Part shown: piece by piece, positions 1,923-32,581 of the stretch
How the letters are laid out: every line of letters begins with the position of its first letter
Position numbering within the stretch: position 1 is the stretch's first letter
IMG/VR virus record: IMGVR_UViG_3300031965_000030
Span: 1 to 60,074 of that record
Length of the DNA stretch: 60,074 bases
From: a virus
Lineage: Duplodnaviria; Caudoviricetes
Reading direction: 5' to 3' (one strand)
Program-made: the position numbers and the translations under genes
The notes under the pieces: model-generated
Database searches by the model: none
The model's input: only the letters and a program-made list of their open reading frames with translations
What the model was told of the DNA's origin: nothing

Positions 1923-3458
1923 ATGTCATTTTATTTCCCAATTCCAGAAGTAGAAAGGAAGTCTAAAAATGTTTACGATTGTGATAAATGTAAATTAAAA
2001 ACCAAGAATTTAAAAACCCCGGAATTTAGAGTGACTATTGGTAATGCCTACGATGGTCTTGTTATTCTTGGCCAAATCCCTTCTAAAGACGACGATACTC
2101 GTGGGATACCATTTATAAATGAAGAAGCTGGGATCATCCGTTCTACGGCATTGAAAAATGGAATCAATTTAGCAAAGCAAGCAGCAATATTATTTGCTTT
2201 GTCCTGCCATACTAAAAAAGCAACCGAAACACAATTCAAATGCTGTCGTAATAAACTAAAAAGTAATATTGAGGAATTAAAACCAAAGTTAATTATATGT
2301 TGTGGAGAAATGGCTTTTAAATATCTTTTCAACTTAAAAAATAAATATGCAATTTCAAAACTTAGAAATAGAATTATTCCTAACTATGAATTCAATTGTC
2401 TGGTATATCCAATCTTTTCCCCGGAACAACTGTATTTCCCAGGTGGTGGAAATAAATATGATTTGATTAATGCTGTTAAACTTGATTTAGAAAGAATATT
2501 TAATTTCTGGAAATCAAGATTTCATAAGCGTTCTGAGATTAAAGCAATCTTGGATAAAAGAAGAATCCTTAAAAATATAACCATTACCGAAATAACATCA
2601 TTACAGGAAGCACAGGATATCTTTGCTGTAATTAGTCAAATGCAAAATATATCATTTGACTATGAAACAACAAATGCCAGTCCTTATGATAATGATTTTG
2701 AGATGATTTATTTTGCCTTTGGTAATGCTACAAATGCTTGGGTATTTCATGAAGATCTTTGGATTGGATTACCAAAGAATTGGGGAATTATAAAACATAA
2801 TTTAATTGAAATACTGGAAAACCCAAAGATTCTAAAAATAATTCAGAATAGCAAATTTGAAGATCTTGCAAGTCGATGGGTTTTAAAAATTAAATGTATT
2901 GATAATGTTTTCTGTACCATGATTGCAACTCATGTAGTTGATGAACGTGGTGGATGTACATCACAAGATTTTCAAAACCTTGTGCGTTTTGGTATTCCCC
3001 CATATAATGAAGCAATAAAGAAATACATTGTTCCTGATAAAGACCAAAAGGTAAATAGAATTAGAGAAGCACCAAAGGGTGAGATGATTCAATACAACGG
3101 TCTGGATGTAATAACCTGTTATCATAATTGGTTAGTTCTGGATAAGGTATTATTAAATGATCCAGGATACCCAAAGGCCAGGGAATGCTATGAATTTCTA
3201 TTACAAGGGCATAAACTTTTTGCTAATCTTACTCAAAGGGGGGTAAACATTGGGCAACAAGAATTTGATGAATTAGAAGAGTTCATAAATGCAGAAATGG
3301 AAAAATGTATAACTGGAATTAGTAACCTGGATAAAGTCATTGAATACAACAAGTATTTGGAATCCAAAATTGTAAGTACTGATGTTAAAGAAAAGAATTT
3401 AAAGATAATAGCAAAGTCAGGTAAGAGAAAATTTCTTTTTTCAAATGATAATAAATAA
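1923..3458 (+). CDS. DNA polymerase A, N-terminal half: family-4 UDG-like domain + DEDD 3'-5' exonuclease + start of thumb
   Basis: CDKC..., GQIPSKDDDTRGIPF and KPKLIICCG (UDG4-like); FDYETT (ExoI), QNSKFED (ExoII), YNGLD (ExoIII); LTQRGVNI; RBS aagga before ATG 1923. Confidence 0.85.
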   Translation: MSFYFPIPEVERKSKNVYDCDKCKLKTKNLKTPEFRVTIGNAYDGLVILGQIPSKDDDTRGIPFINEEAGIIRSTALKNGINLAKQAAILFALSCHTKKATETQFKCCRNKLKSNIEELKPKLIICCGEMAFKYLFNLKNKYAISKLRNRIIPNYEFNCLVYPIFSPEQLYFPGGGNKYDLINAVKLDLERIFNFWKSRFHKRSEIKAILDKRRILKNITITEITSLQEAQDIFAVISQMQNISFDYETTNASPYDNDFEMIYFAFGNATNAWVFHEDLWIGLPKNWGIIKHNLIEILENPKILKIIQNSKFEDLASRWVLKIKCIDNVFCTMIATHVVDERGGCTSQDFQNLVRFGIPPYNEAIKKYIVPDKDQKVNRIREAPKGEMIQYNGLDVITCYHNWLVLDKVLLNDPGYPKARECYEFLLQGHKLFANLTQRGVNIGQQEFDELEEFINAEMEKCITGISNLDKVIEYNKYLESKIVSTDVKEKNLKIIAKSGKRKFLFSNDNK

Positions 3459-3470
3459 AGGGGTTTATAA

Positions 3471-3797
3471 ATGAATATTTATGAAGCTAGATGGAAAAAT
3501 GCAGTGCAAATAGCAAAGAATATTAATCTCCTTATCGATTCAGGTTACATCATATTTGATGAAAATTTTAAAGTAGTTAAATATAAATTTGTAATCACGG
3601 ATGATGAAATATTATTACCTGTAAGTGCTAACTGTTCTAATATTTATTTTTTGCGGGATTCAGCATTTGACAATGGTGCCCACATGAGAATTTCTGAGTA
3701 TAACGAACGATTTAAAGATTGGAAAGCAGTTAAACCAAGTAGTATTCAAACACTCTTTAACGGGGAATCTATGGAGGATAAAATCAATGAAAAGTAA
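3471..3797 (+). CDS. hypothetical protein
   Basis: ORF with aagggg RBS, tightly packed. Confidence 0.7.
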   Translation: MNIYEARWKNAVQIAKNINLLIDSGYIIFDENFKVVKYKFVITDDEILLPVSANCSNIYFLRDSAFDNGAHMRISEYNERFKDWKAVKPSSIQTLFNGESMEDKINEK

Positions 3798-4302
3798 TTT
3801 GTTTGATTTAAGTATTCGCTTTGGTGCTCATAAGAACACGGTAGAAGTTGATAAGGATAAAATAAAAAGTTTATTTGATAGATATTCATGCATTTTTGAT
3901 TTGAAATCAGGAAAATTAATTATTTCATTTTCAGATACAAACATTGTAAGCACAGATATAATTGCTTGTATTTCATTAGTTACGGAATTCAATGTAAGAT
4001 ACAAAAACTTCTGTGATAATAATATGGTTATACCTAGTGAAGAAGATGTAAAACGTGATCCAAAGCTATTACAAGAAATTATGAAGATGCTTTCCTGTGC
4101 ATTGTTGCTTTTCCATGAGTATGATGAAAAAAGTCTTTATGATATTTTATCCAAAGAAATTAGTGTATTTGATTTTTATTACATCATACACACCACTGCT
4201 TTCATAAGTATTGCATACACAGAAAAGGTTTTAGTTGCTCGTAATTCAGTATTTGCCACCGGTATTGATGCAACACCAATGGTATCTACTGCAATTAACT
4301 AA
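3787..4302 (+). CDS. hypothetical protein
   Basis: ORF with ggagg RBS. Confidence 0.7.
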   Translation: MKSNLFDLSIRFGAHKNTVEVDKDKIKSLFDRYSCIFDLKSGKLIISFSDTNIVSTDIIACISLVTEFNVRYKNFCDNNMVIPSEEDVKRDPKLLQEIMKMLSCALLLFHEYDEKSLYDILSKEISVFDFYYIIHTTAFISIAYTEKVLVARNSVFATGIDATPMVSTAIN

Positions 4303-4317
4303 AAAGGAAACTTGGGC

Positions 4318-4653
4318 ATGAGTGAAAGAATTGATGAAGTGGGAACAACATTTGTATACAAACTAAGAAAGGAATCAAAAATGAAAGAAGCCAATTCTGA
4401 AGAAAAAGTACTAGAAAAGGAATTAAAAATGGTGGAAACTAAATTTAAACTTAATGATCGTCAGCGTTCAAGACTTGCTTTCAGACTTCGCAAGGTGAAG
4501 GAATATCCAAATATAAGGGTAGCAAGTGATGGACGAGTTTATGAAGTAAATGGAACAACGCTTTTAAGAGCAGAAAAGAAACAAAGCAAAGCAGAAAAAA
4601 AAGCAGCTAAAAAAGAAAGGGTAAAGGAATTAAAAAAAGGTAAGGGGGTGTAA
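4318..4653 (+). CDS. basic hypothetical protein
   Basis: K/R-rich ORF; start uncertain (4318 or 4381). Confidence 0.65.
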   Translation: MSERIDEVGTTFVYKLRKESKMKEANSEEKVLEKELKMVETKFKLNDRQRSRLAFRLRKVKEYPNIRVASDGRVYEVNGTTLLRAEKKQSKAEKKAAKKERVKELKKGKGV

Positions 4654-4654
4654 T

Positions 4655-4888
4655 ATGTATGATAGAAATAAAATGACAAAGGAACGATTAGATATTGCAA
4701 CTTCACTTAGTAAAGAAATCATTACTCTTAAAAAGGAAATTCAGGATATTGAATCAGGAAAAATTCTTGTATTGATGAATGGCTCCACAAGGATTCCAGT
4801 ACATATCTATAAAGTATTTAAAGAGAATGCTTTAAAATTTCTTAAAGATAATTTAAATGAAAAATTAAAAGAATTTGAAAAGGCATAA
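4655..4888 (+). CDS. hypothetical protein
   Basis: ORF packed between neighbours, with RBS. Confidence 0.65.
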   Translation: MYDRNKMTKERLDIATSLSKEIITLKKEIQDIESGKILVLMNGSTRIPVHIYKVFKENALKFLKDNLNEKLKEFEKA

Positions 4889-4891
4889 TTT

Positions 4892-5116
4892 ATGTGGAAA
4901 ACACAAAAGCCTAAAATTGAGGATCTTAAAATTGATATTGGTGGTGGTACCATGTCTGGAAATTTCCTTATTAGTGTTTCTGGCATAGTTAGAATTAATT
5001 CTTTTATTATGCCGGTACACCCAAAAGGTGGGTATTATGAGGGATATTGGTATAGAATGGATAATGAACCGGATGGATGGCAACCACTTCCAGAGGCAAT
5101 AACAAAGGATACTTAA
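4892..5116 (+). CDS. DUF551-like small phage protein
   Basis: MWKTQKP...GWQPLPEA pattern. Confidence 0.55.
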   Translation: MWKTQKPKIEDLKIDIGGGTMSGNFLISVSGIVRINSFIMPVHPKGGYYEGYWYRMDNEPDGWQPLPEAITKDT

Positions 5117-5428
5117 ATGTTATTTAATATCCAAAGTGGTCCACAAATGCAAGAATTCCTTTATAATTTTTTAAAACTTACTCCAATGAAGGAAAAGAAT
5201 GATAAAGGAAACTATTCTGTAGCAGAAGAAGTTTTAGTTTTCTATGCGGAATCACTTGGGATTGAATTCTGTAAACTTCTTTTGAATTATAGAAAACTTG
5301 CAAAGGCCAAAAATACATACATTGATGGAATTAAAAAACGTCTTAGTTTAGCAGATTGTATGCTTCATCCCGAATTCTGGATGAATGTTGCAGAAACTTA
5401 TCGTTCAAGCAGCACAAACCCCAACTTT
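5117..5428 (+). CDS. DNA polymerase A, C-terminal half, exon 1 (thumb/palm)
   Basis: FNIQSGPQ thumb motif, YRKLAKAKNTYI, ETYRSSSTNPNF; joins 5823 to give NPNFQNFP. Confidence 0.88.
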
Positions 5429-5822
5429 TTCTTAATGATTACGAGCACTTACGTAACAAATTGGAAGTTGTAAAACATGGTGAACTGCTGGAATATCCTA
5501 AAGGCAATTAGACTACAACGTAACTGGAAACGGTAAACGTGAATGTTTGAAAACTAATTGCATAGATATACCAAGGATGATGCAATGAGCAAAATAGATC
5601 ATTGTAGGTATTAAAAATGGACAATCAGCATCCAAGCACCTACAAGGAAAATTTAAATTTTCCTATGGTGAAGGTTCAACGACTATCCCGTAAGGGAGTA
5701 GGGAATTAGGGTTAAGATTCCCGAAGCGCCATGCCCAATCAATTTGATTGGTGATGATATAGTCTGAACATTACGGGAAACCGTAAGAGAATGAATTGAC
5801 CCGGTTCATTCGTAACGCATTG
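5429..5822 (+). ncRNA. group I self-splicing intron (394 nt, no homing endonuclease ORF)
   Basis: P aactgctggaa, Q aatcagcatcc, R gttcaacgacta, S gatatagtct, P3 catgg/ccatg; IGS ttggaagttg pairs with exon caacttt (U-G at the splice site) and with 3' exon caa; terminal G 5822; splicing restores the frame. Confidence 0.92.
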
Positions 5823-6866
5823 CAAAATTTTCCAAAGCATGGGGATATAATTGCTGGATTTGCATGGCAGAATATACGCCGGATGTTTACTTCACTTGGA
5901 ACTGATTGGGTGCTTGGTGAACTTGATTACATTGGCGCTGAAGTAAAGATTGCAGCAATGCTTGGTGATGACCCTGTAATGATCAATGATATTGTTTCTG
6001 ATATGGACATGCATTCCCATTGGGCAAGAGAATTATTTGGATTACATCACCTGGAATACCCTGAAATTAAAAAGCAATTTTCTGATTACAGATTTCTTGC
6101 TAAGAATAACTTCACTTTTGCCAATTTCTTTGGTGCTGGTAATACATCAATTGCTGAAGAAATGCGGAAACATCCAGCATATGAAGCATATGTAAGGACT
6201 AAATGGAATGGAACTGGAAATTGGGAAAAATTCTTTAAGGAATTCAGTGAAAATCATGTGGCAGAATGTCAAGCAGCATTCTTTTCACGTTATCCAGTTT
6301 TTAAAGCCTGGCAAGACAAGATTGTTGAGGATTTCTACAAAAACGGATATATTGAAAATCCTTTTGGATTCCGAAGAAGATACCCGCTAAAAAGGAATGA
6401 GATTATCAATTACCCAATTCAATCAACCTCATTTCATATTCTATTACGTGGATTAATTGAATTGGATAAATTACTTATTGAGTACCAACTTAAAACCCAT
6501 ATCTCTGGGCAAATTCATGACAGTGGTTTCTTTAATATTTTTATTCCTGAAATATATGATGTAATGGAATTGTCAGAAGGTATCATGACCAATAACAGGC
6601 AATACTCTTGGGCAAGAAAGGTACCATTGGCTATTGAATGGGATTTTGGTAAGAACTGGTTGGATATGAATGGTGTAATAAACTCTAAAAACAGGTTAAC
6701 CGGAACAACAATAGCATTTGAGAAAATACCTATTGGCTGCTCCTTCATTTCTCAGGGACCAAAGAAAGGATTAAGAAAGTACATCAAAACAAATCATGCG
6801 TTTGCCATAACGGATGGTATGGAGTATGCGTTTAACAAGCAATGTGAATGTCGTCCATCATTATAG
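5823..6866 (+). CDS. DNA polymerase A, C-terminal half, exon 2 (catalytic motifs A, B, C)
   Basis: LDYIGAEVK (A), RFLAKNNFTFANFFG (B), NYPIQS, QIHDS (C). Confidence 0.92.
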   Translation, partial: QNFPKHGDIIAGFAWQNIRRMFTSLGTDWVLGELDYIGAEVKIAAMLGDDPVMINDIVSDMDMHSHWARELFGLHHLEYPEIKKQFSDYRFLAKNNFTFANFFGAGNTSIAEEMRKHPAYEAYVRTKWNGTGNWEKFFKEFSENHVAECQAAFFSRYPVFKAWQDKIVEDFYKNGYIENPFGFRRRYPLKRNEIINYPIQSTSFHILLRGLIELDKLLIEYQLKTHISGQIHDSGFFNIFIPEIYDVMELSEGIMTNNRQYSWARKVPLAIEWDFGKNWLDMNGVINSKNRLTGTTIAFEKIPIGCSFISQGPKKGLRKYIKTNHAFAITDGMEYAFNKQCECRPSL

Positions 6867-7108: not shown

Positions 7109-7330
7109 ATGCCACGGTATAAACTAATAGAAGCATACAAATTTGGGTCTTTCGTTCCTGATATGGATGATGTAAATGCATTGATTTCCACTGAAACAGA
7201 ATTTATGAAAAACTTTGATTTTGCAAAATATAGAAAAGGAATGAATGAAGCAGAAGAAAAACACCATTTGTATGCCTGTGGGTTTAACCGTGGGTGTGCC
7301 TGGATGTTAAATAAACTAAGGAAAAAGTAA
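7109..7330 (+). CDS. hypothetical protein
   Basis: ORF with aagga RBS. Confidence 0.65.
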   Translation: MPRYKLIEAYKFGSFVPDMDDVNALISTETEFMKNFDFAKYRKGMNEAEEKHHLYACGFNRGCAWMLNKLRKK

Positions 7331-7622: not shown

Positions 7623-9944
7623 ATGGATATTTCTAAGTATTTAAATTCAGGGTTTAGCTGTATTTTCATTGAAACAACAGAAATTAAAAGAGCGGTAAAT
7701 ACTATCCAGGTAAAACCACCGTTCAACAAATTGACATGGAATTTAATTGACAACAATGGTCAATTTGAAATCCTTGAGGAAAGTAAAAATTTACGGCAAC
7801 ATGCAATTATTCTGGAAAACTATGATTGTTTTCTGGAAAATCCAGCCATACAACAAACCATATTGAATAATTACCCGGTATATAAATCAAATCAAGTTTG
7901 TCTTGTTATTGTTGGTGTTAATTCAAAAAAGATCCCCCCGGTATTAAAAGAACTTATTCCAGTTCTTCAATTCGATTTACCATCAAAAGAAGTAATTCGT
8001 GTTATTGTAGAAAACCTTGCAAAAGATGCAGAAGAGGCATATAAGGAGCAATTCAAGACAGAAACTTGTAATATGTTTATTCCTACAGAAGATGTAATTG
8101 ATGCCTGTCTAGGAATGAGTTATGAAGAAATTGAAAATAGTTTGGCACTTTCTATCCTTGAACATAATGAATTTAATGTAAAAACAATTATTAATAGAAA
8201 GCGTCAAACTATTCGGGCAACAGGATTCATGGATTTTGGCAACCCCGAACCAATTGAGAATCTTGGTGGTCTGGATAATCTAAAAGCATATATTAAAAAA
8301 CGCAAAGAGGCGTTTGAATCCGGGAGTATTAAACCAAAATTAAAATCAATTTTGCTTATCGGGGTGCCTGGATGTTTAACCGGGGATACAATTATAAATG
8401 TTTGTAGAAAACAACGGACAGGGGGGTATAAAAGCATTAGGTTAGATGCTTTGTATTATCGTTTTAACGGAAAACACAAAGAAGCAAAAGAAAAAGGATT
8501 GCTTACTAATCATAATAAAAAATGGGATTTGTCAATTGATACAAAATGCCACTCTTACAAAGAGAAAGAACAATTCATTGGTTTTAACGAAATTGAAGGT
8601 GTTATTTATTCAGGAATAAAGGAAGTTTATGAAGTTACTACTGACTTTGGTTTTAAAATCAAAGCAACAAAAGATCATAAATTTCTCACTGAAAAAGGAT
8701 ATATTACCCTTGGTAATTTAAAAAAAGGGGATAAAGTTTATACCCACAAAGAGGGGGAATTGGTTAATGGTAATAAAACTGGAAGAAAGATAAATATTCC
8801 CCCAAGACAAATAAATAATGTGGGTAAACATCCTAATGCCAGAAAAAGAATAGTAAATGAAATGGAATATACTAGTTACCCATTACATCGTTTGGTTGTA
8901 GAAGCACATATGAATAAGTTAAAACTTGAAGATTTTTTGTACAAATTGGAGAATGATATTTCCAATTTGAGATTTCTTGATCCAAAATTGGAAATCCATC
9001 ATATGGATGAAAACAGAAAAAATAATACCATAAAAAATCTTCAAGTTTTAACAAAAGACGAACATGCAAGAATTCATGCCGAAAAAGGAAAACTAAACAG
9101 ATATAGATACTTTCCTAGGTTTCAAAAAATAATCAGCATAAAATATATTGGTAAAAGAAAAACATATGATATTCAAATGAAAGCACCGGACCACAATTTT
9201 GTTGCCAATGGTTTTATTGTTCATAATAGCGGAAAATCTCTAGCGTCAAAGGCAATTGCCAGCATTTTCAATTGGCCTTTGATTACCTTGGATATTGGTG
9301 CTCTTAAAGGTAGTTTGGTTGGTGATACAGAAAGAAATACAAGGGTTGCATGTAAAACCATTGATGCTTGTGGAAAAGCAATCGTTCAAATCGAGGAAAT
9401 AGAAAAAGCATTATCTGGATCAACAGGGCAAAACCTTGATTCAGGCGTATCAGCCGGGATGTTGGGTTACTTGCTTACCTGGATGCAGGAAAGGGATTCT
9501 GAAAGCATTCTTATTGCTACAGCGAATGATATTTCAAAGCTTCCACCTGAATTTCTTCGTTCTGGTCGGTGGGATTGTATTTTCTTTGTAAATACACCAA
9601 ATACATTAGAAATTAAAGAAATCATTCAGATTATGAATTCAAAGTATGGATCTAAACTTCCGATCACCAGTAAGTTTTGTAATCAATTGTTTGAGGAACA
9701 ATGGACTGGTGCTGAAATTGAACAACTTGCAAAGGATTCACATTTTGATTCAATTGAAATTGCAATGGAAAACATCCCATTGCTTGCTAAGTTTAAATCA
9801 GAAGAAATAAAAGAATTACGGGAAAAAGCTAGGCAATTTAGAGCAGCAAATGCCAGGGAACCAATGGCATCTCCAAAACCCCTTAATTTAAAAGTGGACT
9901 CACCAAAAAGAAAATTGTTTTTAAACAAAGGAGGAAAGGAATAA
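7623..9944 (+). CDS. Ycf46-like AAA+ ATPase (488-aa extein) containing an intein
   Basis: LGGLDNLK, Walker A GVPG/SGKS, Walker B IEEIEK, ATAND, LPPEFLRSGRWD. Confidence 0.9.
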   Translation: MDISKYLNSGFSCIFIETTEIKRAVNTIQVKPPFNKLTWNLIDNNGQFEILEESKNLRQHAIILENYDCFLENPAIQQTILNNYPVYKSNQVCLVIVGVNSKKIPPVLKELIPVLQFDLPSKEVIRVIVENLAKDAEEAYKEQFKTETCNMFIPTEDVIDACLGMSYEEIENSLALSILEHNEFNVKTIINRKRQTIRATGFMDFGNPEPIENLGGLDNLKAYIKKRKEAFESGSIKPKLKSILLIGVPGCLTGDTIINVCRKQRTGGYKSIRLDALYYRFNGKHKEAKEKGLLTNHNKKWDLSIDTKCHSYKEKEQFIGFNEIEGVIYSGIKEVYEVTTDFGFKIKATKDHKFLTEKGYITLGNLKKGDKVYTHKEGELVNGNKTGRKINIPPRQINNVGKHPNARKRIVNEMEYTSYPLHRLVVEAHMNKLKLEDFLYKLENDISNLRFLDPKLEIHHMDENRKNNTIKNLQVLTKDEHARIHAEKGKLNRYRYFPRFQKIISIKYIGKRKTYDIQMKAPDHNFVANGFIVHNSGKSLASKAIASIFNWPLITLDIGALKGSLVGDTERNTRVACKTIDACGKAIVQIEEIEKALSGSTGQNLDSGVSAGMLGYLLTWMQERDSESILIATANDISKLPPEFLRSGRWDCIFFVNTPNTLEIKEIIQIMNSKYGSKLPITSKFCNQLFEEQWTGAEIEQLAKDSHFDSIEIAMENIPLLAKFKSEEIKELREKARQFRAANAREPMASPKPLNLKVDSPKRKLFLNKGGKE
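8373..9227 (+). mobile_element. intein (285 aa) with HNH homing endonuclease, inserted in Walker A
   Basis: Starts CLTGDT, block B TKDHKF, ends HNFVANGFIVHN followed by +1 Ser; internal HRLV...HHMDENRKNN...HARIH. Confidence 0.93.
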
Positions 9945-9947
9945 GTT

Positions 9948-10325
9948 ATGAGTCATATATCAAAAATATCTTTGGAAATTAAAAATCTTCAGGTATTAAA
10001 AAAAGCCTGTGCTAAACTTGGTGCCGTATTTCATGAGGGACAAACGGAACAAATCTATTACATGGGGAAACAAAAATGTGATCATGCTATTTCCCATGTG
10101 GATGCAAAATATGAAATTGGAATTGTGAAATCAGGTAAGAATTGGGAATTACAATGGGATTCATATTTTGCTGGTGGTCTGGAAAGCATCTTTGGCAAAG
10201 ATGCTGGTTTATTAAAACAAAGATATGCTGTTGAACAAACAAAGTTTACGGCCATGCTAAAAGGAATGGCCGTCAGTGAAAAATTAAAAGAGAATGGGGA
10301 AATTGTTCTAGTGGTTAATTTATAA
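9948..10325 (+). CDS. DUF1257/Ycf35-like protein
   Basis: MSHISKISLEIKNLQVLKKAC...YEIGIV...LKQRYAVE pattern; position after a Ycf46-like ATPase. Confidence 0.75.
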   Translation: MSHISKISLEIKNLQVLKKACAKLGAVFHEGQTEQIYYMGKQKCDHAISHVDAKYEIGIVKSGKNWELQWDSYFAGGLESIFGKDAGLLKQRYAVEQTKFTAMLKGMAVSEKLKENGEIVLVVNL

Positions 10326-10345
10326 TCAACATAAGGAAATAAAGT

Positions 10346-10546
10346 ATGAAACAAGTAATAATGACAATTAAACCAGATGGTGAAATAAGCATTGAAACAG
10401 AAGGATTCAGCGGTTCCATGTGCGTGGAAGAAACGCAGTTCATTAAGGATGCCCTTGGTGAAGAAACGGCACAGGTATTGAAACCCTGTTATTTTGGAAC
10501 AGTAGAAACCGGGGTAAAAAGAAAATTAAAACCATTGTGTGGTTAG
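10346..10546 (+). CDS. DUF2997-like protein
   Basis: TIKPDGEISIETEGFSGSMCVEETQFIKDALG pattern. Confidence 0.8.
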   Translation: MKQVIMTIKPDGEISIETEGFSGSMCVEETQFIKDALGEETAQVLKPCYFGTVETGVKRKLKPLCG

Positions 10547-10580
10547 TTGGATATTGATTGGATTACTAACTTAATTATCA

Positions 10581-10609
10581 TTGACAATCAGAAGTAGTGA
10601 ATGTAAAAT
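10581..10609 (+). promoter_or_regulatory. sigma70-type promoter
   Basis: TTGACA-17bp-TAAAAT in the intergenic gap. Confidence 0.7.
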
Positions 10610-10652
10610 TTAACCTTAACTTAATTTTTATGGTAAAGAAAGGGTGGTCATT

Positions 10653-11576
10653 GTGGCAAAGAGATTAAATTTAAATAGGAAGATGACAATTGGAACAGGA
10701 AAGAAAGATGAAATAGATATATTCAAATTTGGAACATTAATTCAATTAGAATCACATTGCTGGTTGGGTTCCAAAAGACTTCCAAAAAAGGCAACCACAG
10801 AAATAAGTAAAGACGAAAAAAAATCAAAGTGGTTTAAAGCCAATAAGAACCTAATTGATAGAACTAAATTAGCAGACATCAATCTGTATATTGCCGAAGC
10901 TAGAAATACCATTTGGGAATATGCCCTTCCATTCCCCATAAAAGGGGTATACTTTCTTCCTAATGCAAAGCGTGATGTAGTTAATACAAAATTAAAAGAA
11001 ATAAAAAGAAAATTTGATGAAGCTGTAGGTGAATTTGAAGTTCAGTATTCAGATTACATTGCTGATGCTGAGGCCAATCTTGGGGAGTATTTCAATTCTA
11101 GTGATTACCCGACAGAAATAACAAATAAGTTTGGTATTCGTTGGAGATTTTTTGAAATGACTATTCCTAGCGGCATCACAAAGGAAACCTATGAAGAAGA
11201 ATCAAATAGGTTTAAACAGCTTATGGAACAGACTGAACAAATGGGTATCCTGGCCCTTCGGGATAGTTTTGGAAAAATTGTAAATCATCTTAGTGAAACC
11301 TTAACTGGTAAACTTGATGGTGAAAAAAGAAGAATACGACAAGATTCATTAGATAAAGTACAGGCATTCTTTATTGAATTTAAAAATAAGAATGTATTCA
11401 ATGATAAAGGACTTGAAAATTTGATTGCATCAGCACAAGCAATTGTTGGTGATGTTTCCCCAAAGGATTTAAAAGATCAGAATGTTACAAAACAAATCAA
11501 TGATCAAATGAAAATTATAAAAAAGGAACTTGATTCTTCTACGGAAACAATGCGAAGAAAATTAACTTTCTATTGA
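10653..11576 (+). CDS. DUF3150-like phage protein
   Basis: Helical protein with YALPFPIKGVYFLP and LGEYFNSSDYP motifs; GTG start at 10653 or 10644. Confidence 0.6.
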   Translation: MAKRLNLNRKMTIGTGKKDEIDIFKFGTLIQLESHCWLGSKRLPKKATTEISKDEKKSKWFKANKNLIDRTKLADINLYIAEARNTIWEYALPFPIKGVYFLPNAKRDVVNTKLKEIKRKFDEAVGEFEVQYSDYIADAEANLGEYFNSSDYPTEITNKFGIRWRFFEMTIPSGITKETYEEESNRFKQLMEQTEQMGILALRDSFGKIVNHLSETLTGKLDGEKRRIRQDSLDKVQAFFIEFKNKNVFNDKGLENLIASAQAIVGDVSPKDLKDQNVTKQINDQMKIIKKELDSSTETMRRKLTFY

Positions 11577-11584
11577 GGTCTATC

Positions 11585-18137: not shown

Positions 18138-18142
18138 AGAAT

Positions 18143-19066: not shown

Positions 19067-19069
19067 TGT

Positions 19070-21974: not shown

Positions 21975-22206
21975 TATACACGACTTCCACTTTACACCCC
22001 ATTTTTTGTTCAGAATGTGGGGGAAGAATAGCAAAAGATGATAAATATGAACTACTGCCTTTCGGCACGGTATTTGCCTTAAAACGAGATGGTTTTAAAG
22101 AAAATAGAGCCTTTTGTGGGGACACAGAATTTAAAACATTCTATTCAAAAAACATGGATGAAGATTGCAAAAAATCATAAACACTATTACAAGAGTTAAA
22201 CTAAAT
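21931..22206. repeat. 29-bp perfect direct repeat (21931-21959 and 22178-22206) flanking a small gene
   Basis: taaacactattacaagagttaaactaaat occurs twice, 247 bp apart. Confidence 0.92.
21971..22180 (+). CDS. small Zn-finger-like protein
   Basis: CSECG...FC; gagg RBS. Confidence 0.6.
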   Translation: MIYTTSTLHPIFCSECGGRIAKDDKYELLPFGTVFALKRDGFKENRAFCGDTEFKTFYSKNMDEDCKKS

Positions 22207-23708: not shown

Positions 23709-25105
23709 TGCAGCAACAACTTGAGTTCAATAACAATTTTTTGAATCAAATTATAATTCATTGTATACAAAACGATAAATTTTTAAAAAGTGTAAGACGG
23801 GTGGTATCTCCTGATCTAATGAAATCAAGAGATAGAAAACATTTACTTAACATGATCTATGAGTATTACGATAAATTTGAATGTTCCCCAAAAGACAATT
23901 TCTTTGATATTTTTACTGAATCCGAAAAGGAAATGTCAGATGAATTATATGATAAATGCATCTCTTTAATTGGGGTTCTAAAAGATATAACTGGATCAAA
24001 CCCGGAATACATTCTTTCAAAAATAAACGATGCTATATGTCATTTTCAATTAGAAGAGGCAAGTGTAGAATTTGCTTCTTTAATCAAAAAGAAAAAATAC
24101 ACTGAAGCGAAATCTATTATATTAAAGGCTATGAAGCCACCAGATGGTCTTGATCTACCATACTTTGATTTTTTTACTGATAAATCTTATATAGAAGAAA
24201 GGATAAAAGAAACCAGATATAAAATGACTACTATGATTCCAGGATTGGACAAGCTTATAGGAGGTTTAAACCCCCCTTGGCTTGTAACGCTATTAGGTGC
24301 AACTAAAAGTGGAAAAAGTTGGGGTTTAATGGAGCTGGCTGTAGCAGGAGTTTTACAAGGTTTGAATGTAACATTTGTATCTTTGGAAATGGACAAAAAT
24401 ACTTGCAAAGCAAGATTTGACCAAATTATTGGTTTTATGTCATCCACGGATTCAAATTCCCCACAGGATGTAATGAAATACAATGGCGTTGAATGGATAA
24501 AATCACAGGAAGTTATTCCATCCATTTATGATATTAATAAAGTAGAAAAAAATACTGCCAGGCTTAAAAAGGTATCCGGTGGGGGGCTTAAAATCATAGC
24601 ATTCAATCGTGGTAGAATGAACTACATGGACATTGATTGTTTGCTGGATGAAACTGAAGAACGAGATGGTTTCATTACTGATCTTCTTATTACCGATTAT
24701 CTTGGCATAATGAAAGAAACTTGTCCTGGGCAATCAAAAAAGGAAAGGATTGGAGAAAACTGTTTGGGTTTAAAAGATATTTGTGGTAAAAGAAACATGA
24801 TTGGTGTAACCGCTATGCAGGGTAATAGAAGGGCTATGCAAGCACGAGTATTTCATTCACATATGATAGCGGATGATATTGACACAATATTTAATTCAGA
24901 TTTAATTATAGCCATATGCCAAACAAAGCAGGAAGAGGAACTTAATAGATTCCGATTTTACATTGCCAATTATCGACATGGAAAACAATTTACATCTGTT
25001 GGTATTATTCGTGACCTGACAGTCGGTCAAATAGCTCTAGGGGAATTTGATATTTCAGATTTTGAAGAATTCCCTGATGAACAAGATGTTGGAACTGATT
25101 ATTAA
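23708..25105 (+). CDS. DnaB-like replicative helicase
   Basis: GATKSGKS, VSLEM, ITDYL, TAMQGNR, NYRHG. Confidence 0.9.
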   Translation: MQQQLEFNNNFLNQIIIHCIQNDKFLKSVRRVVSPDLMKSRDRKHLLNMIYEYYDKFECSPKDNFFDIFTESEKEMSDELYDKCISLIGVLKDITGSNPEYILSKINDAICHFQLEEASVEFASLIKKKKYTEAKSIILKAMKPPDGLDLPYFDFFTDKSYIEERIKETRYKMTTMIPGLDKLIGGLNPPWLVTLLGATKSGKSWGLMELAVAGVLQGLNVTFVSLEMDKNTCKARFDQIIGFMSSTDSNSPQDVMKYNGVEWIKSQEVIPSIYDINKVEKNTARLKKVSGGGLKIIAFNRGRMNYMDIDCLLDETEERDGFITDLLITDYLGIMKETCPGQSKKERIGENCLGLKDICGKRNMIGVTAMQGNRRAMQARVFHSHMIADDIDTIFNSDLIIAICQTKQEEELNRFRFYIANYRHGKQFTSVGIIRDLTVGQIALGEFDISDFEEFPDEQDVGTDY

Positions 25106-25253: not shown

Positions 25254-25390
25254 CTTTTACCTGTGCAAAGTGTGGTGGTTTTAAACCAGTAGAAGGTCGG
25301 AAAAAATTTAAGGTTACAAAAAGGGATATCAAAAATAGACCTGTTTATAACTATCAATGTGCTGATTGCCAAAAGGAAACAATTGAATGA
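25250..25390 (+). CDS. small Zn-ribbon protein
   Basis: MTFTCAKC...YQCADC; ATGA overlaps at both ends. Confidence 0.55.
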   Translation: MTFTCAKCGGFKPVEGRKKFKVTKRDIKNRPVYNYQCADCQKETIE

Positions 25391-26127
25391 ATATATCATA
25401 TGTAGGAGAAGGTAAAGTTTATTTACTTTCCGGTGGTGGAAAAATTTTTACTGATGTTGCTGCAAGGTTTGTTGGTAGTGAGAGATCATTAGATGAAATC
25501 GTTGTCAGTGAGTACAATAAAAAACTTGTGGAAAACATTATTAATCGTGGGCATCTTGCAGCAACAGAGTTTGATTATTTTATCTTTGGTGTTGAAGGAT
25601 ATTCAAGAGTAACAGAAACACAACTTGTAAGAAAACGAATTGCCAGTTATCTAATAAAATCTGGGAGGGCTGAAAAAAATGGCAAGCGAAAATTTGATAT
25701 CGTACTCCCAGAGAGTGTAACAAAACATTCCATTTCTTATAGGGGACTTTACTGGGATTACATTGATATTCTTGAATTAATTGAAGATTGGTATAATTCA
25801 GGTATTACATCCGGGTTTAAAGAAGAAGAACTACGTTATTTAAAACCACAGGCAACCGAGTTTAAAGGAATCATCGGTATGAATTGTCATGCATTAATTG
25901 ATTGGTTTAAAATAAGGTTATGTCTTAATGCCCAGACTGAAATACAAGATATGGCATGGAAAATGTTTAAGTTAGTGACATCAGTAGCACCAGATCTTTT
26001 TTCTAAAGCAGGTCCAAACTGTAAAGCGCTTGGGTATTGCCCTGAAAATGGTGGACAGCATAAATCATGCGTAGGCAAGGTATTAACACATGATAAAGTT
26101 CTTACGTTAATAAAAAACAATTCTTAA
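25387..26127 (+). CDS. thyX: flavin-dependent thymidylate synthase
   Basis: GHLAATEF, SRVTETQLVRKRIASYLIKSGR (RKR variant of RHR), ELRYLKP, RLCLNAQTEI. Confidence 0.85.
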   Translation: MNISYVGEGKVYLLSGGGKIFTDVAARFVGSERSLDEIVVSEYNKKLVENIINRGHLAATEFDYFIFGVEGYSRVTETQLVRKRIASYLIKSGRAEKNGKRKFDIVLPESVTKHSISYRGLYWDYIDILELIEDWYNSGITSGFKEEELRYLKPQATEFKGIIGMNCHALIDWFKIRLCLNAQTEIQDMAWKMFKLVTSVAPDLFSKAGPNCKALGYCPENGGQHKSCVGKVLTHDKVLTLIKNNS

Positions 26128-27891: not shown

Positions 27892-29328
27892 ATGGTTATT
27901 GAAATTCAGGAACTAGACGCTGTTTACTGCAAGGTACTAACCCCACAAGGCCAAGGGTTAGTATGGGAAATTCTTTCTTATGAGGATGTAACCAGAAACA
28001 TATGGTCTGGATTCCCTGAAGCAGTGAAAAGATCCCATATGGATAAACGTGGAATGAGTTTTTTATGTGGTTTGATTCCATATGTAACCAAAAAATTGGT
28101 TGAAATGGGGCATGAAGTTGATGTCTTTAAAATAAAAGTGAATCTGCCATATCGTTTATTTGTAAGTCTTCCTGATACTATTTTTGAAAAATACCAAAGT
28201 AAACTTTTGCGCAGTGTAGGTAAAAATAACAGGGGGATTTTAATAGCCCCCACTGGTGGGGGAAAAAGTTTAATTTTGGGGGGGATAATCAGCAAATACA
28301 ATATTCCTGTATCACTTCTTATCGTACCTACAAAGTCTATTTTAAAACAAATGGAGAATGATTTTAAAAAATGGTTCCCTGAGTATGATATTGGCATTGT
28401 TGGTGATAATCAATGCACCGTAGGGCATATAACCATAGCTTTATTTCAATCCCTAAGCAGATGGGATTTAACTAAATACAATAGCATCCTACAGTTGATT
28501 ATCATTGATGAATGCCATAAAATGAATAATTCAATACAAAAAATGCTCAAACAGCTAACAAAAGTTCCCTTTAGATTTGGTGTTACAGCAACGCCAAGGA
28601 GGGAAACAGACTTTAATGAATATGGAAGAATGATTGGAAATATTGGTCCTATAATTAGTGAAGTTGATGATATAGAATGCATTTCCAGAGTAACCCCATG
28701 TCATGTTTATACTATAGGGTATTATTGTCATTCACCAAAAGGAACAGATTATAGAAGTATTTACCAAAAGGATATTCTTTTCTCTATTATAAGAAATAGA
28801 AAATTATTATCTGCGGCTAAAAAATTGGCATTGGATAAAGGAAAAACCTGTGTTTTTTTGCTTGATCAAATTGAACAAGGTGAAATTATATTTGACATAG
28901 CAAAAAGTATGGGGTTAAATCCATACTTAGTGCATTCAAAAATGAAAAAAGGACATAATGAAAATATAAAAAAGTTATTATCAGAAAATAAAATAAATTT
29001 GGTAATAGCTACAGGAGTATGGGGTATTGGTACTTCAATCTATAATATTGATTGCGTTGTTTTAGCTTCTGCAAGAAAGTCTTACATTGATACTCTTCAA
29101 AAGTTAGGTCGTGCAAGAAGAAGATCAGCAAAAAAAGAAGAGGCAATAATTATTGATGTTATTGACAAAGTAAGAAATAACTCGGGATGCAGAAAGAAAT
29201 GTTATAAATACTTTGAAGATTATTCTAAATTAAGAATAAGTTGGTATAAAGAAAAGAAATGGTATATGGGTGATGCGTTTAACGCCCAGGCTAACCGGAT
29301 GGGTTGGAAAGGAGACAAAGATGAGTGA
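27892..29328 (+). CDS. UvsW-like superfamily 2 helicase
   Basis: APTGGGKS, IIDECH, TAT, QKLGRARR. Confidence 0.9.
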   Translation: MVIEIQELDAVYCKVLTPQGQGLVWEILSYEDVTRNIWSGFPEAVKRSHMDKRGMSFLCGLIPYVTKKLVEMGHEVDVFKIKVNLPYRLFVSLPDTIFEKYQSKLLRSVGKNNRGILIAPTGGGKSLILGGIISKYNIPVSLLIVPTKSILKQMENDFKKWFPEYDIGIVGDNQCTVGHITIALFQSLSRWDLTKYNSILQLIIIDECHKMNNSIQKMLKQLTKVPFRFGVTATPRRETDFNEYGRMIGNIGPIISEVDDIECISRVTPCHVYTIGYYCHSPKGTDYRSIYQKDILFSIIRNRKLLSAAKKLALDKGKTCVFLLDQIEQGEIIFDIAKSMGLNPYLVHSKMKKGHNENIKKLLSENKINLVIATGVWGIGTSIYNIDCVVLASARKSYIDTLQKLGRARRRSAKKEEAIIIDVIDKVRNNSGCRKKCYKYFEDYSKLRISWYKEKKWYMGDAFNAQANRMGWKGDKDE

Positions 29329-29578
29329 GCACTTATGGGGGCTTGTGAGACCATCATGTCCTATGTGCCCCCAGGAAAATGGAAAAACACAATTAGGAAG
29401 TATTGAAATCAGTAACTTCTATCTTATTGACAACAAACGATACCAACGGATTGGCATGTCAGTATCAATTCAAGTTGACAGCACCGGAAAAACACTTGGT
29501 ACAGGGTTTACTCATGATCCATTGGAAATGGTAACAGTAGAAGCGGCAGCGGAACACTGCCAAAACAGCAACGCATGA
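29321..29578 (+). CDS. hypothetical protein (CxxC)
   Basis: aaggag RBS; CPMC. Confidence 0.6.
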   Translation: MSEHLWGLVRPSCPMCPQENGKTQLGSIEISNFYLIDNKRYQRIGMSVSIQVDSTGKTLGTGFTHDPLEMVTVEAAAEHCQNSNA

Positions 29579-30726: not shown

Positions 30727-30766
30727 ACCAATATAATGAGTTTACGGATCAGAAGGAGAAAATAAA

Positions 30767-30976: not shown

Positions 30977-30980
30977 ATTT

Positions 30981-31199: not shown

Positions 31200-31238
31200 G
31201 AAAATTTTAAGCCTTATTACAAATAAAAAGGGCATTCA

Positions 31239-31463
31239 ATGACAAAATTAAAATTAACAAAAACAATGCCAAGAGCAAAAGTTAAATTTATTATTGAATA
31301 CGAATATGAATTACAGCCGGAGTTTTACCCGGAAGGTTTAAGCGCGGAAGAGATGTTGAAAATTGACATTAGCAATATGAACAATGACCCACTGATGGTG
31401 TTGGATCTTGCAATAGGTGATAGCCTGGCTAAATGGGAGACAACTGGGGAGATTATTAAGTAA
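31239..31463 (+). CDS. hypothetical protein
   Basis: ORF with N-terminal MTKLKL. Confidence 0.6.
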   Translation: MTKLKLTKTMPRAKVKFIIEYEYELQPEFYPEGLSAEEMLKIDISNMNNDPLMVLDLAIGDSLAKWETTGEIIK

Positions 31464-31478
31464 AATTCGGAGAGGCTA

Positions 31479-31673
31479 ATGGCACATATTGATGATAAAA
31501 TCATGCATTGCAAGGGGTGTGACAAGGATTTCATAATCCCACACAACCAGGCAGGAGGTTTTTGGTTTCTGTGTGGCTGGACGAATCCGCACGGTCTGGA
31601 GTTTTGGGGTGGTTACTGCGTCAAATGTTTCCATGCTTTAGATAAGGTTACTAATACTACAGGGAATAAATAA
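31479..31673 (+). CDS. small Zn-ribbon protein
   Basis: CKGC...CVKC; gagg RBS. Confidence 0.6.
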   Translation: MAHIDDKIMHCKGCDKDFIIPHNQAGGFWFLCGWTNPHGLEFWGGYCVKCFHALDKVTNTTGNK

Positions 31674-31873
31674 TGTCTATTAAAATTACTGAAACAACCG
31701 AACGTCAATGCTGTGCGCATAAAGACTTGAAAAAGTATAGGGGGGAAGGATCAAAAACAATTGAGATGTTCTGCCAACACTGCGGCCAGCAATTTACTTC
31801 TAAAATCTACACTGAGGCAGGACGTAGTATAGACAAAATGTATGTAAAATGTGGATTAGGTATCAATTCATAA
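31673..31873 (+). CDS. small Cys-rich protein, paralog A
   Basis: IKITETTERQCC...FCQHCGQ; similar to 31923-32147. Confidence 0.7.
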   Translation: MSIKITETTERQCCAHKDLKKYRGEGSKTIEMFCQHCGQQFTSKIYTEAGRSIDKMYVKCGLGINS

Positions 31874-31922
31874 ACAGGTTGAATAAAGTTATTATTGCCA
31901 AATAATATTACAGAGGTACATT

Positions 31923-32147
31923 ATGCCTATTAAAATTACGGAAACAATAGAAAGATTTTGTTGTGAACCTAAAGATCTAAAAAAGTATGAAGGAGCACAT
32001 AACGATGAAGAGCCAAAAAATGTAAAATGGTTCTGCCAATACTGTGGGCAACTGTGGGAAAACCACACTTATACTGATGCAGCTGGTTCAAGAGATACAG
32101 AATTGGTCAAATGTGGAATGCATCTAATTCATAAACAGGCTGAATAA
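31923..32147 (+). CDS. small Cys-rich protein, paralog B
   Basis: IKITETIERFCC...FCQYCGQ. Confidence 0.7.
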   Translation: MPIKITETIERFCCEPKDLKKYEGAHNDEEPKNVKWFCQYCGQLWENHTYTDAAGSRDTELVKCGMHLIHKQAE

Positions 32148-32164
32148 ATTAAAGGAGCTAAGAA

Positions 32165-32401
32165 ATGGCGATAATTGTTAATTGTGTTTGCCATAAATGC
32201 GGGAAACGCTGGTGAACTGCTGTCGGTAGCAGCAGGTCAGCCCCAACGATTTGCCCGGACTGCGACAAAAAAGATAAGGACCAGAAACGGCGGGAACATT
32301 TTCATAGCCTTGATAAACTAAGCCTAGAAGAGCGGATGAGTAAAATTGAGAAGTGGATATATGATTATCGGCCACCAAATACAGGGTCTAGTATTTTTTA
32401 A
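32165..32401 (+). pseudogene. Zn-ribbon protein gene with in-frame TGA at 32213 (pseudogene or recoded)
   Basis: aaggag RBS; MAIIVNCVCHKCGKRW*TAVGSSRSAPTICPDC...LEERMSKIEKWIY, with the two CxxC knuckles on either side of the stop. Confidence 0.65.
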
Positions 32402-32419
32402 TTTCAAAAAGGAAATAAC

Positions 32420-32581
32420 ATGAAAGTCAAATTGGGTAATGATAGAGAGTGGACAATCTATGCAGTAGGTGAAACTAAAGAATGTGTTATGGATATTCAT
32501 TTTCCAAAGAAACTTACGAAGAAAAAAATTAAGGAAATCCAAAAGACTTTACAAGAGACGTTAGCTGAAATCAATATTTAG
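32420..32581 (+). CDS. hypothetical protein (53 aa)
   Basis: aagga RBS; MKVKLGNDREW. Confidence 0.55.
   Translation: MKVKLGNDREWTIYAVGETKECVMDIHFPKKLTKKKIKEIQKTLQETLAEINI

Follow-up and report, generated by a model that had tools for sequence, protein, structure and literature searches.

The locus considered here raises the question of why a series of unrelated phage proteins begin or end with nearly the same short basic-hydrophobic peptide, and what, if anything, reads it. The stretch analysed, hereafter the window, is the complete IMG/VR record IMGVR_UViG_3300031965_000030 (60,074 bases), an uncultured phage fragment with a completeness estimate of 58% and no end repeats in the record. Its + strand carries replication and recombination genes up to ~35.4 kb, and virion genes lie on the − strand past that point. 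Comparison of the peptide among relatives indicates that it is a genuine short linear motif selected at protein level. Whether it also serves as a docking or recognition peptide for one common receptor, which we place in a phage gene module built around an AAA ATPase, is in our judgement an evenly balanced call.

In the motif, two positive charges precede a hydrophobic-x-hydrophobic unit, roughly [KR][KR]-[LIFMV]-x-[LFI], at the extreme N- or C-terminus of unrelated + strand proteins; in the N-terminal form, one of the charges may come from the free amino end. An earlier reading of this DNA, made from the sequence only, had quoted a set of such termini, and re-translation of the coordinates placed every one of them where it had been reported. 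In the window's clade the motif is carried by at least seven unrelated families, namely the polymerase exonuclease subunit, the tandem AAA ATPase, DUF3150 (both ends), the ‘UvsY-like’ protein, RecA, the flap nuclease and the protein starting at 21498, plus several small open reading frames (ORFs). The carriers in the window are as follows.

3423–3440, + strand: KRKFLF near the C-terminus of the polymerase N-half (translation, Pfam; conserved in orthologues)
9876–9923, + strand: KPLNLKV and KRKLFL in the C-terminal tail of the AAA ATPase (translation, Pfam; conserved)
10659–10673, + strand: KRLNL at the DUF3150 N-terminus, (M)AKRLNL, GTG start at 10653 (translation; conserved)
11553–11570, + strand: RRKLTF at the DUF3150 C-terminus (translation; conserved)
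12044–12058, + strand: KRLKL near the C-terminus of the ‘UvsY-like’ protein of 162–166 amino acids, 11573/11585–12073 (translation; conserved)
13674–13688, + strand: PKLKL directly behind the start Met of RecA (translation, Pfam; conserved)
22205–22222, + strand: MPKLKL at the N-terminus of the 5'-3' exonuclease (FEN), before the Pfam domain, which begins at residue 16 (conserved)
21891–21962, + strand: KKLKL, KRFKL and VKLNL, three copies in the C-terminal tail of protein 21483/21498–21974 (translation; orthologues)
16819–16836, + strand: MPRLKL at the N-terminus of a 94-amino-acid ORF, 16819–17103, a candidate carrier (no orthologue found in the relatives G001 and G002)
31239–31256, + strand: MTKLKL at the N-terminus of a 74-amino-acid ORF, 31239–31463, a candidate carrier (no orthologue found in G001 and G002)
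7109–7126, + strand: MPRYKL at the N-terminus of a 73-amino-acid ORF, 7109–7330, a candidate carrier absent from the earlier list (translation)

The [KR]-Y-K-L form of the last candidate also occurs at the DUF3150 N-termini of another clade, and other small ORFs in relatives begin MKRLKL or MKRIKL. For 16819, 31239 and a further ORF, 32420, no orthologues were found in G001 and G002. The ‘UvsY’ label that had been given to 11573–12073 did not stand: the protein has no Pfam family and matches only PHROG 1069, of no known function, at an expectation value (E) of 7e-4, so that the label rests on its position before the genes for a single-strand-binding protein (SSB) and RecA. Two further termini were not counted as carriers. 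The N-terminus of the N-terminal SbcC piece (MKLKSVDL) represents the ordinary opening strand of the ATPase head, and the DUF1257 C-terminus, despite 18/21 matches to a broad pattern, lacks the charges in the window copy (ENGEIVLVVNL) and resembles the last strand of the fold.

All cultured phages proved to be remote, with best RecA matches among GenBank phages of 33–37% identity, and an Edwardsiella phage examined as a cultured relative has a beta-clamp and clamp loader and no motif. Related viral contigs were therefore collected through RecA, the polymerase N-half, DUF3150, the SSB and the AAA ATPase, and two large relatives were taken whole, G001 (89 kb, 83% complete) and G002 (96 kb, 98% complete). 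Proteins of the relatives are 30–75% identical to those of the window. A pattern search of the viral contigs returned no relatives of the flap nuclease, for which a direct search of four related records was used instead.

The window by itself gives a marginal statistical result. Among its 64 + strand proteins, the pattern [KR][LF].[LF] named in the sequence-only reading occurred 7 times in the first 20 residues compared to 2.6±1.6 in shuffled sequences (P 0.018) and 6 times in the last 20 residues compared to 2.8±1.7 (P 0.067); the 24 − strand virion proteins gave 2 and 2 matches versus 0.8. Such an enrichment of ~2.5-fold would be weak if standing alone. We therefore combined the window with G001 and G002 (187 replication-arm and 89 virion-arm proteins, own gene calls) and scored a refined pattern, [KR][LIFM][KRNSTQ][LF], which is post hoc and shaped on the same data that it scored, the orthologue and database counts given below being the independent check. 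The refined pattern was found 17 times in the first 10 residues versus 2.0±1.45 (at most 8 in 300 shuffles) and 16 times in the last 14 residues versus 3.7±1.9 (at most 9 in 300 shuffles); 10 of the 17 N-terminal copies begin exactly at residue 3. Under a stricter control, in which residues were permuted within each terminal position across proteins and position-specific composition was kept, the expectations rose to 4.1±2.0 and 4.7±2.1, and the observed counts were reached in none of 2000 permutations. With the original pattern the same control gave 14 versus 5.7 at the N-terminus (reached by 4/2000) and 12 versus 6.4 at the C-terminus (48/2000). Virion-arm proteins gave 2 and 3 matches, which is background and confirms in three genomes that, as had been noted for the window, virion proteins do not bear the motif. 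Because the three genomes are orthologous, these are about eight to ten families rather than 33 independent events, the counts are not independent, and retention in orthologues is the stronger evidence.

For retention we counted distinct termini over all clade loci, leaving out the window copy (L001), GenBank loci, the outgroup loci L065–L078, ORFs at the 5' end of a locus and exact duplicates; a terminus was scored only where the BLAST alignment came within 35 residues of that end. The motif was kept at the RecA N-terminus in 19/20 orthologues (as MPRLKL, MARIKL, MKRINL or MKRVKL), in all 10 distinct C-terminal tails of the polymerase N-half (RRKLSF, KRKIQF, KPKRISLRRR), at the DUF3150 C-terminus in 20 of 22 locus copies (KRKLTF, RRKFSF, ERKISF) and in 16/20 distinct AAA ATPase tails (for example KPRKLKLN). 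The ‘UvsY-like’ protein retained it in 17 of 23 distinct tails, typically as KPKRIKL or KPKRFxL, with acidic residues following KPKRIKL. Similar results were obtained for the flap nuclease N-terminus (4/5; MQRLKL, MKKLNL) and for protein 21498, which bears the motif in three of three genomes, its orthologues ending RPKRMKLECKD (G001) and VKRIKLRKKT (G002). The motif of the relatives is often sharper than the window's own version. Control families of the same operons stayed near zero: DUF2997 (0/19 and 0/17), the gp32-like SSB (1/21 and 1/23), the PDDEXK nuclease (0/15 and 2/18), SbcD (0/12 and 1/14), p16383 (0/17 and 0/7), the DnaB-like helicase (0/3 and 0/3) and p20906 (0/7 and 0/7).

Database homologues gave the same picture. 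The C-terminal form [KR][KR]-hydrophobic-x-hydrophobic was present in 26 of 27 DUF3150 homologues compared to 3/776 internal windows (0.4%), and the N-terminal form [KR]-hydrophobic-x-[LI] lay within 22 residues of the start in 22/27 compared to 8/318 internal windows (2.5%). AAA homologues of at least 60% identity had the motif in their last 16 residues in 24/25 cases, compared to 1% of internal windows, with 13/21 at 40–59% identity and 2/47 below 40%, the latter mostly cellular Ycf46-like proteins. Retention in orthologues thus bore out the proposal for RecA, the flap nuclease, both ends of DUF3150, the polymerase N-half, the AAA ATPase, the ‘UvsY-like’ protein and 21498; three other termini that had been listed, the DUF2997 tail (0/17), the tail of the C-terminal SbcC piece (1/10) and the methyltransferase N-terminus, did not retain the motif.

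Some further features of these families were seen beside the motif. Many relatives, though not the window, have an extra gene of 100–216 codons directly 5' of DUF3150 whose product ends RKLTF, RKITF or RKLSF; examples between DUF2997 and DUF3150 are L046 4138–4749, L047 1476–1985, L048 1613–2263 and L060 8317–8619. Throughout the clade, the C-terminus of RecA is conserved and basic-aromatic, R-x-P/N-K-W-G (window 14780–14804). A second element, S-L-[RQK]-[DE]-[RK]-[LV]-[KN], lies near the N-termini of RecA and the gp32-like protein (window 13722–13745 and 12086–12110), behind the tag in RecA and ahead of a basic stretch in the SSB, and occurs once within the G001 homologue (28093–29553) of the acidic protein p443 described below.

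Codon usage shows at which level the motif is kept. In RecA, five codons (AAA, AGA, CGA, CGT, AGG) serve the basic position and six serve each of the two aliphatic ones; in DUF3150 the motif Arg is mostly CGT or CGC although the genome has 32% G+C, and the motif persists in a distant lineage of 54% G+C. Codons vary and the residue class is kept, so that it is the protein on which selection acts. A shared DNA or RNA element at the gene starts (ATGCCAAAACT...) was rejected as a candidate because orthologues hold the residue class with different codons, and this turnover, together with retention at 54% G+C, excludes both a shared nucleic-acid signal and AT-driven composition. Both the permutation controls and the retention in orthologues thus meet the concern that AT-rich genomes are rich in K and L in any case. 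The motif also sits on segments that are predicted to be disordered: in AlphaFold2 (AF2) models, the last 20 residues of the G001 AAA ATPase have a predicted local distance difference test score (pLDDT) of 35–37 and DUF3150 residues 1–23 one below 50, and in the RecA alignment a linker of 0–20 residues separates the motif from the conserved SLRDRLK helix.

The motif was then followed to a four-gene module of the window.

7623–11576, + strand: AAA ATPase-DUF1257-DUF2997-DUF3150 gene module, the favoured candidate for the receptor (Pfam, PDB sequence matches, AF2 model, recurrence in distant lineages)
7623–9944, + strand: classic AAA ATPase with an intein and HNH nuclease inside (Pfam)
9948–10325, + strand: DUF1257 (Pfam)
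10346–10546, + strand: DUF2997 (Pfam)
10653–11576, + strand: DUF3150, GTG start (Pfam)

The ATPase matches PF00004 at E 7e-15, has a GxxGxGK Walker A motif that is conserved in the alignment only in the second AAA domain, and finds VAT, Cdc48 and p97 by sequence in the PDB. An AF2 model of the intein-free G001 protein (496 amino acids; pLDDT 82.7) aligned with p97, Cdc48, Rix7 and NVL over 520–580 columns (E ~4e-18, TM-score 0.47–0.57), and on this modelled structure the protein is classed as Cdc48/p97-like with a tandem D1-D2 architecture. The model shows no p97-type N domain; it starts directly with the first alpha/beta domain and leaves no room for one. The window's intein (Pfam Intein_splicing 296–535, HNH_3 455–483) lies immediately ahead of the Walker A region; relatives encode intein-free orthologues (496–502 amino acids), and a few database homologues of 779–788 amino acids carry inteins. 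Cellular Ycf46-like AAA ATPases (P0096–P0123), 27–32% identical to the phage protein, have a conserved C-terminus of their own, W-A-x-x-R-[TA]-V-P-A or similar, which suggests from sequence that the tail of this family is functionally important far beyond phages. DUF3150 had no sequence match in the PDB and no relatives in 185,579 species genomes; its AF2 model (pLDDT 78) found no PDB match below E 0.6, and its matches in BFVD were uncharacterised DUF3150-like viral proteins only. No published function for the four-gene module was found, full-text literature searches on DUF1257/DUF2997, DUF3150 and phage Ycf46/AAA proteins having returned passing mentions only.

The distribution of the module across viruses points to where the motif may have begun. 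Five distant viral lineages have almost nothing in common with the window beyond the AAA module (AAA 29–48% and DUF3150 23–28% identical, G+C 0.35–0.54), their neighbouring genes being otherwise unrelated. In all five, DUF3150 retains the C-terminal motif (HRRKLDLN, YKRRFIL, LKRKLDV, YKRKFRL, PKRLIIPV); the motif is clear in the AAA tails of L092 and L094 but only partial in those of L091, L093 and L095, and partial too in L096, which has no DUF3150 nearby. The record G008, distant and 95% complete, keeps the DUF3150 motif and has neither a gp32-like gene nor a p443 homologue. Among cultured phages, Tunturiibacter phage Tunturi_3 combines the module with a bacterial-type RecA; its DUF3150 ends DRKFHLEGEEF, and a gp32-like gene is absent. 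In Synechococcus phage MinM2, DUF3150 lies next to a MoxR ATPase and a VWA protein, with no classic AAA and no motif. Six outgroup loci encode a gp32-like protein (25–30% identical), RecA and SbcCD and lack the AAA-DUF1257-DUF2997-DUF3150 module; two of them have a clamp-like protein and a clamp loader, called from their termini, beside the polymerase. No motif was seen on RecA, the polymerase or elsewhere in these outgroup loci, except for one polymerase ending KKINLN. From this pattern we infer that DUF3150 and the AAA ATPase are the oldest carriers, always accompanied by DUF1257 and DUF2997, and that it was in the window's clade alone that the motif later reached proteins of the replisome and of recombination.

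We place the receptor in the AAA module because the motif appears to be oldest on DUF3150 and the AAA ATPase and tracks the module, and the comparative data point, weakly, to a receptor within it. A common receptor would gather the motif-bearing proteins through their flexible terminal tails. The Cdc48-like AAA machine could act as an unfoldase or segregase that needs no ubiquitin and is drawn to tagged DNA-bound proteins, which it would load, unload or recycle. The sequence-only reading had likewise proposed a common tag that recruits replication and recombination proteins to one hub; the common peptide on unrelated non-virion proteins stood, and the identity of the hub is still drawn from gene distribution. 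Its three candidate hubs fared differently. For a clamp, neither DNA_pol3_beta (PF00712) nor a T4-type processivity factor (PF02916) matched at E up to 1 in the window (G000), G001 or G002. The acidic scaffold, given as 749–1837, is a real clade-specific protein (443–1837, net charge −34) but is absent where distant lineages keep the DUF3150 motif. The AAA/DUF1257/DUF2997 module is the one favoured by the comparative data. For the other role raised in that reading, a mark for turnover, no ClpP was matched in the window, G001 or G002.

Several points weigh against a receptor in the AAA module. Its placement there comes from gene distribution alone, and the contrast between clade and outgroup represents one evolutionary event. 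Two near-complete distant records show no general terminal enrichment (G006, 5 and 3 of 100 versus 5.1 expected; G008, 2 and 3 of 57 versus 2.0). Only in the window's clade, then, has the motif moved onto replisome proteins, a step that could depend on a partner confined to that clade, for example p443. The AAA ATPase itself bears the motif, which is a better fit to a client or to a self-regulating tail than to a plain receptor, and the AAA tails of the most distant lineages are merely motif-like. p97 reads basic-hydrophobic cofactor motifs; the AAA model has no p97-type N domain, so that this mode of reading has no obvious counterpart here. Finally, gene starts were our own calls from ORFs and Shine-Dalgarno scoring, and some N-termini could be wrong. 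Co-folding of the G001 AAA ATPase (496 amino acids) and gp32-like residues 46–398 with the last 40 residues of the polymerase N-half as partner, run with alignments and no controls, gave ipSAE interface scores of 0.02 and 0.01 and weighs neither way.

A more far-reaching version of the receptor in the AAA module, which we consider rather unlikely, is a private, ubiquitin-free tagging system. A five-residue tag would first have linked the AAA ATPase and DUF3150 and later have been copied to the polymerase subunit, RecA, the mediator, the flap nuclease and small proteins; one AAA segregase module would then recruit, load, extract or recycle the whole replication and recombination machinery on DNA, standing in functionally for a clamp and its loader, which in related phages are encoded at this place in the genome.

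Comparison to known systems shows which part of this arrangement is familiar. Known clamp-binding peptides include the bacterial beta-clamp motif (QL[SD]LF or QLxLxL), the PIP box (Qxx[LIM]xx[FY][FY]) and the T4 gp45-binding tails. Similar to these, the present motif is one short extreme-terminal peptide on many unrelated replication and repair proteins, with an alternating hydrophobic core, and as in T4 its positions include the C-terminus of the polymerase and the N-terminus of the flap nuclease. Unlike the beta-clamp motif, it has Lys, Arg or the N-terminal residue in place of the first-position Gln in all families; the hydrophobics at i and i+2 are conserved, no further hydrophobic is, and many copies end at i+2. 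The spacing of the PIP box (Gln, aliphatic at +3, aromatic pair at +6/+7) was found in no carrier. In further contrast to clamp systems, no clamp gene was matched here, and the carriers include RecA, the mediator encoded next to the SSB and an AAA ATPase. Terminal signals of AAA+ machines provide a second comparison: ssrA-like, MuA-like C-terminal and N-terminal ClpX signals are known, as are linear motifs and C-terminal tails for Cdc48/p97 and the proteasomal ATPases. These too lie at termini, are short and lack structure, and in some of them a basic part precedes a hydrophobic one; the phage encodes a Cdc48/p97-like AAA ATPase with the motif on its own predicted-disordered tail. The likeness is one of sequence, however, and here there is no match to ClpP (in the window, G001 or G002), no p97-type N domain, and a tag that is also on the ATPase. 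Although the logic of clamp, PIP and SSB-tip peptides is known, the chemistry of the motif (basic, with hydrophobics at i and i+2), its set of carriers and its link to an uncharacterised AAA module are new; full-text literature searches, supplementary files excepted, on the domains of the module and on phage SSB tails with short linear motifs returned no paper on this module or motif.

An alternative receptor is the gp32-like SSB of the same operon.

12086–13234, + strand: gp32-like single-strand-binding protein, 382 amino acids, acidic tip GDDIPY (13214–13231), a rival hub (Atlas lead, zinc-ligand pattern)

The partner tails could dock on the SSB core in imitation of its own basic cooperativity peptide, or bind the acidic D-I-x-hydrophobic tip of the SSB, and so assist the handover of single-stranded DNA to the polymerase, RecA, the mediator and the flap nuclease. 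The carrier classes are those that bind SSB in T4 and E. coli, and terminal-peptide hubs are familiar from the E. coli SSB C-terminus and the acidic tails of T7 gp2.5 and gp4. As in those cases, a hub-and-spoke arrangement on a terminal peptide would serve similar clients, and the SSB and the DnaB-like helicase of the window have acidic tails ending in an aromatic or aliphatic residue. The helicase tail (window 25085–25102) ends in Tyr in three genomes (DVGTDY, IGIDY, KVESY), and these tails, like the gp32-like tips, recall the acidic tails of T7 gp4 and gp2.5. The SSB tips (GDDIPY, EEDDLPF, EADINI) have the spacing of the motif with the charge inverted; the SSB family keeps a KFKKRSTS-like segment, and several clades have N-terminal RKKLT or KKKLT. 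In the known systems, however, the peptide is acidic and on the hub, where here it is basic and on the clients, and SSB tips are received by folded pockets rather than by tails. A precedent for a basic docking peptide combined with an acidic recruiting domain is T4 gp32, whose N-terminal Lys-Arg-Lys-Ser-Thr is reported to dock on the core of the neighbouring gp32 while the acidic C-domain recruits other proteins (PMC12893549); the acidic domain as a hub of the SSB-tip type is likewise reported (PMC12893549; PMC11551737). The former paper gives the LAST motif of gp32 as (Lys/Arg)3(Ser/Thr)2 (PMC12893549). The motif of the window resembles it as a basic terminal peptide that often has Ser or Thr in the same place (KRKLTF, RRKLSF), LAST itself docking on a neighbouring protein that handles single-stranded DNA. 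LAST, however, sits on the SSB and has no obligatory hydrophobic pair; here KRK or RRK followed by one Ser/Thr is common but interleaved with obligatory hydrophobics, and occurs on non-SSB proteins, the motif tracking the AAA/DUF3150 module rather than gp32-like genes. Outgroup phages with a gp32-like protein and RecA lack the motif, and DUF3150 keeps it without a gp32-like gene in the 95% complete record and in Tunturi_3. A sub-clade (L043 12069–13244, L046 7076–8260) has apparently exchanged the acidic tip for a tag-like tail (QKLGLKLE, KKLGISLD), which makes its SSB resemble another carrier. Membership in the gp32 family is itself a lead only: H98, C110, C119 and C122 (H-x11-C-x8-C-x2-C) are invariant in 14 sequences and Atlas neighbours include clusters with PF08804 in 12–65% of members at TM ~0.5, leads as well, whereas no Pfam family (PF08804 included) and no PDB sequence match, by single sequence or profile, was obtained. 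Overall, we consider the SSB unlikely to be the hub.

A host protein could also read the tag, either the host sliding clamp through a variant of the clamp-binding peptide that lacks Gln, or a host AAA+ unfoldase or protease such as ClpX, with a role in processivity and recruitment or in timed remodelling and turnover. Known clamp clients bind through the C-terminus of the polymerase and the N-terminus of the flap nuclease in T4, and through the N-terminus of Hda in bacteria, and the positions of the carriers agree with these; the x-L-x-L/F core of the motif resembles QL[SD]LF and QLxLxL. ClpX signals include basic-hydrophobic N- and C-terminal peptides, and the MuA C-terminus that ClpX reads is, like the motif, basic then hydrophobic. 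The phage has no clamp or ClpP match, its outgroup relatives encode a clamp-like protein and loader, and one of their polymerases ends KKINLN. Nevertheless, the Gln of the clamp motif is replaced by Lys/Arg and its fifth hydrophobic residue is absent; RecA, the mediator, the AAA ATPase and the SSB would be unusual clamp clients, and degrading its own abundant replication proteins seems costly to the phage. No relative was found among 185,579 species genomes, and the host was not identified. The motif tracks the AAA/DUF3150 module across very different G+C, which a phage-encoded reader explains more easily, and a host reader appears quite improbable.

The acidic protein in front of the polymerase is the remaining phage-encoded candidate.

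443–1837, + strand: acidic protein p443, 464 amino acids, a rival hub named in the earlier reading (alignment supports ATG 443)

Automated refinement had put its start at 653; the alignment favours ATG 443. The protein would be a multivalent scaffold whose helical modules and acidic linkers collect the basic-hydrophobic tails, thereby concentrating replication and recombination proteins. Its composition (99 Asp+Glu in 464 residues, net charge −34) suits such a role, as does its organisation: an N-terminal segment of conserved aromatic and basic character (LP.WK.YLYSL), then a repeat of short helical modules, of helix-extended-helix appearance, with acidic linkers between them. It is conserved in the window's clade at 33–41% identity, lies directly 5' of the polymerase gene and lacks a motif of its own (0/5 and 0/2). 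p443 occurs only where the motif has spread widely and is absent from five distant records with the AAA module; it is thus missing where DUF3150 and the AAA ATPase keep the motif and cannot be the original receptor. It matched no Pfam or PHROG family, and charge complementarity alone leaves the conserved hydrophobic-x-hydrophobic spacing unexplained. We regard p443 as a very doubtful receptor.

It is still less probable that the tails are non-specific nucleic-acid anchors, basic arms that raise the affinity for AT-rich phage DNA and need no protein receptor. The well-annotated carriers all act on DNA and the motif always has two or three Lys/Arg, but the hydrophobics at i and i+2 are conserved as much as the charges, DNA enzymes of the same operons (SbcD, the PDDEXK nuclease, helicases, primase) lack the motif, and a DNA role is not established for the AAA ATPase and DUF3150. 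That the motif has no function, as a by-product of K/L-rich composition, of A-rich codons after starts or of AU-rich initiation regions overlapping gene ends, is scarcely credible: a genome of 32% G+C (30–38% along the window) in which K, L and I are the commonest residues and positions 2–6 are rich in them, together with the marginal window-only test, would suit it, but position-specific permutations never reached the counts, virion genes are at background, control families of the same operons are near zero, and orthologues retain the motif despite synonymous and conservative codon change, including CGT/CGC Arg and the lineage of 54% G+C.

The remaining genes of the + strand were assigned by Pfam as follows.

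1869/1923–3458, + strand: UDG-superfamily (uracil-DNA glycosylase) domain plus 3'-5' exonuclease, the N-half of a family A polymerase
5117–5473 and 5796–6866, + strand: polymerase domain, in two pieces
13671–14804, + strand: RecA
15457–16113, + strand: PDDEXK nuclease
17100–19968, + strand: SbcC/SbcD-like genes
22205–23095, + strand: 5'-3' exonuclease (FEN, flap nuclease), domain from residue 16
23097–23708, + strand: methyltransferase
23708–25105, + strand: DnaB-like helicase
25387–26127, + strand: ThyX
27892–29328, + strand: SF2 helicase
34219–35187, + strand: Toprim primase, weak match

Rfam and tRNA scans of the window gave no matches. The family A polymerase is in pieces (window 1869–6866), and the half with the UDG-like and 3'-5' exonuclease domains is a separate protein in all relatives. 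The polymerase domain itself is split in the window by a gap of 322 bases that has no Rfam match; the domain is a single ORF of 403 amino acids in G001 and of 741 in G002. Two neighbouring small paralogous ORFs were also seen, at 31673–31873 and 31923–32147 (MSIKITETTERQCC... and MPIKITETIERFCC...).

Replisomes are wired through shared docking peptides, for example clamp-binding motifs, PIP boxes and SSB tips, and each of them opened the way to the mapping of an interaction network from sequence. Here, in a large clade of uncultured phages without a recognisable clamp, a peptide of new chemistry is found on at least seven unrelated families, and it appears to trace back to a four-gene module of a Cdc48/Ycf46-like AAA ATPase, DUF1257, DUF2997 and DUF3150. 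The tag would offer a direct experimental handle on its receptor, and hence on a first function for three domains of unknown function that are also found in cyanobacteria and plastids.

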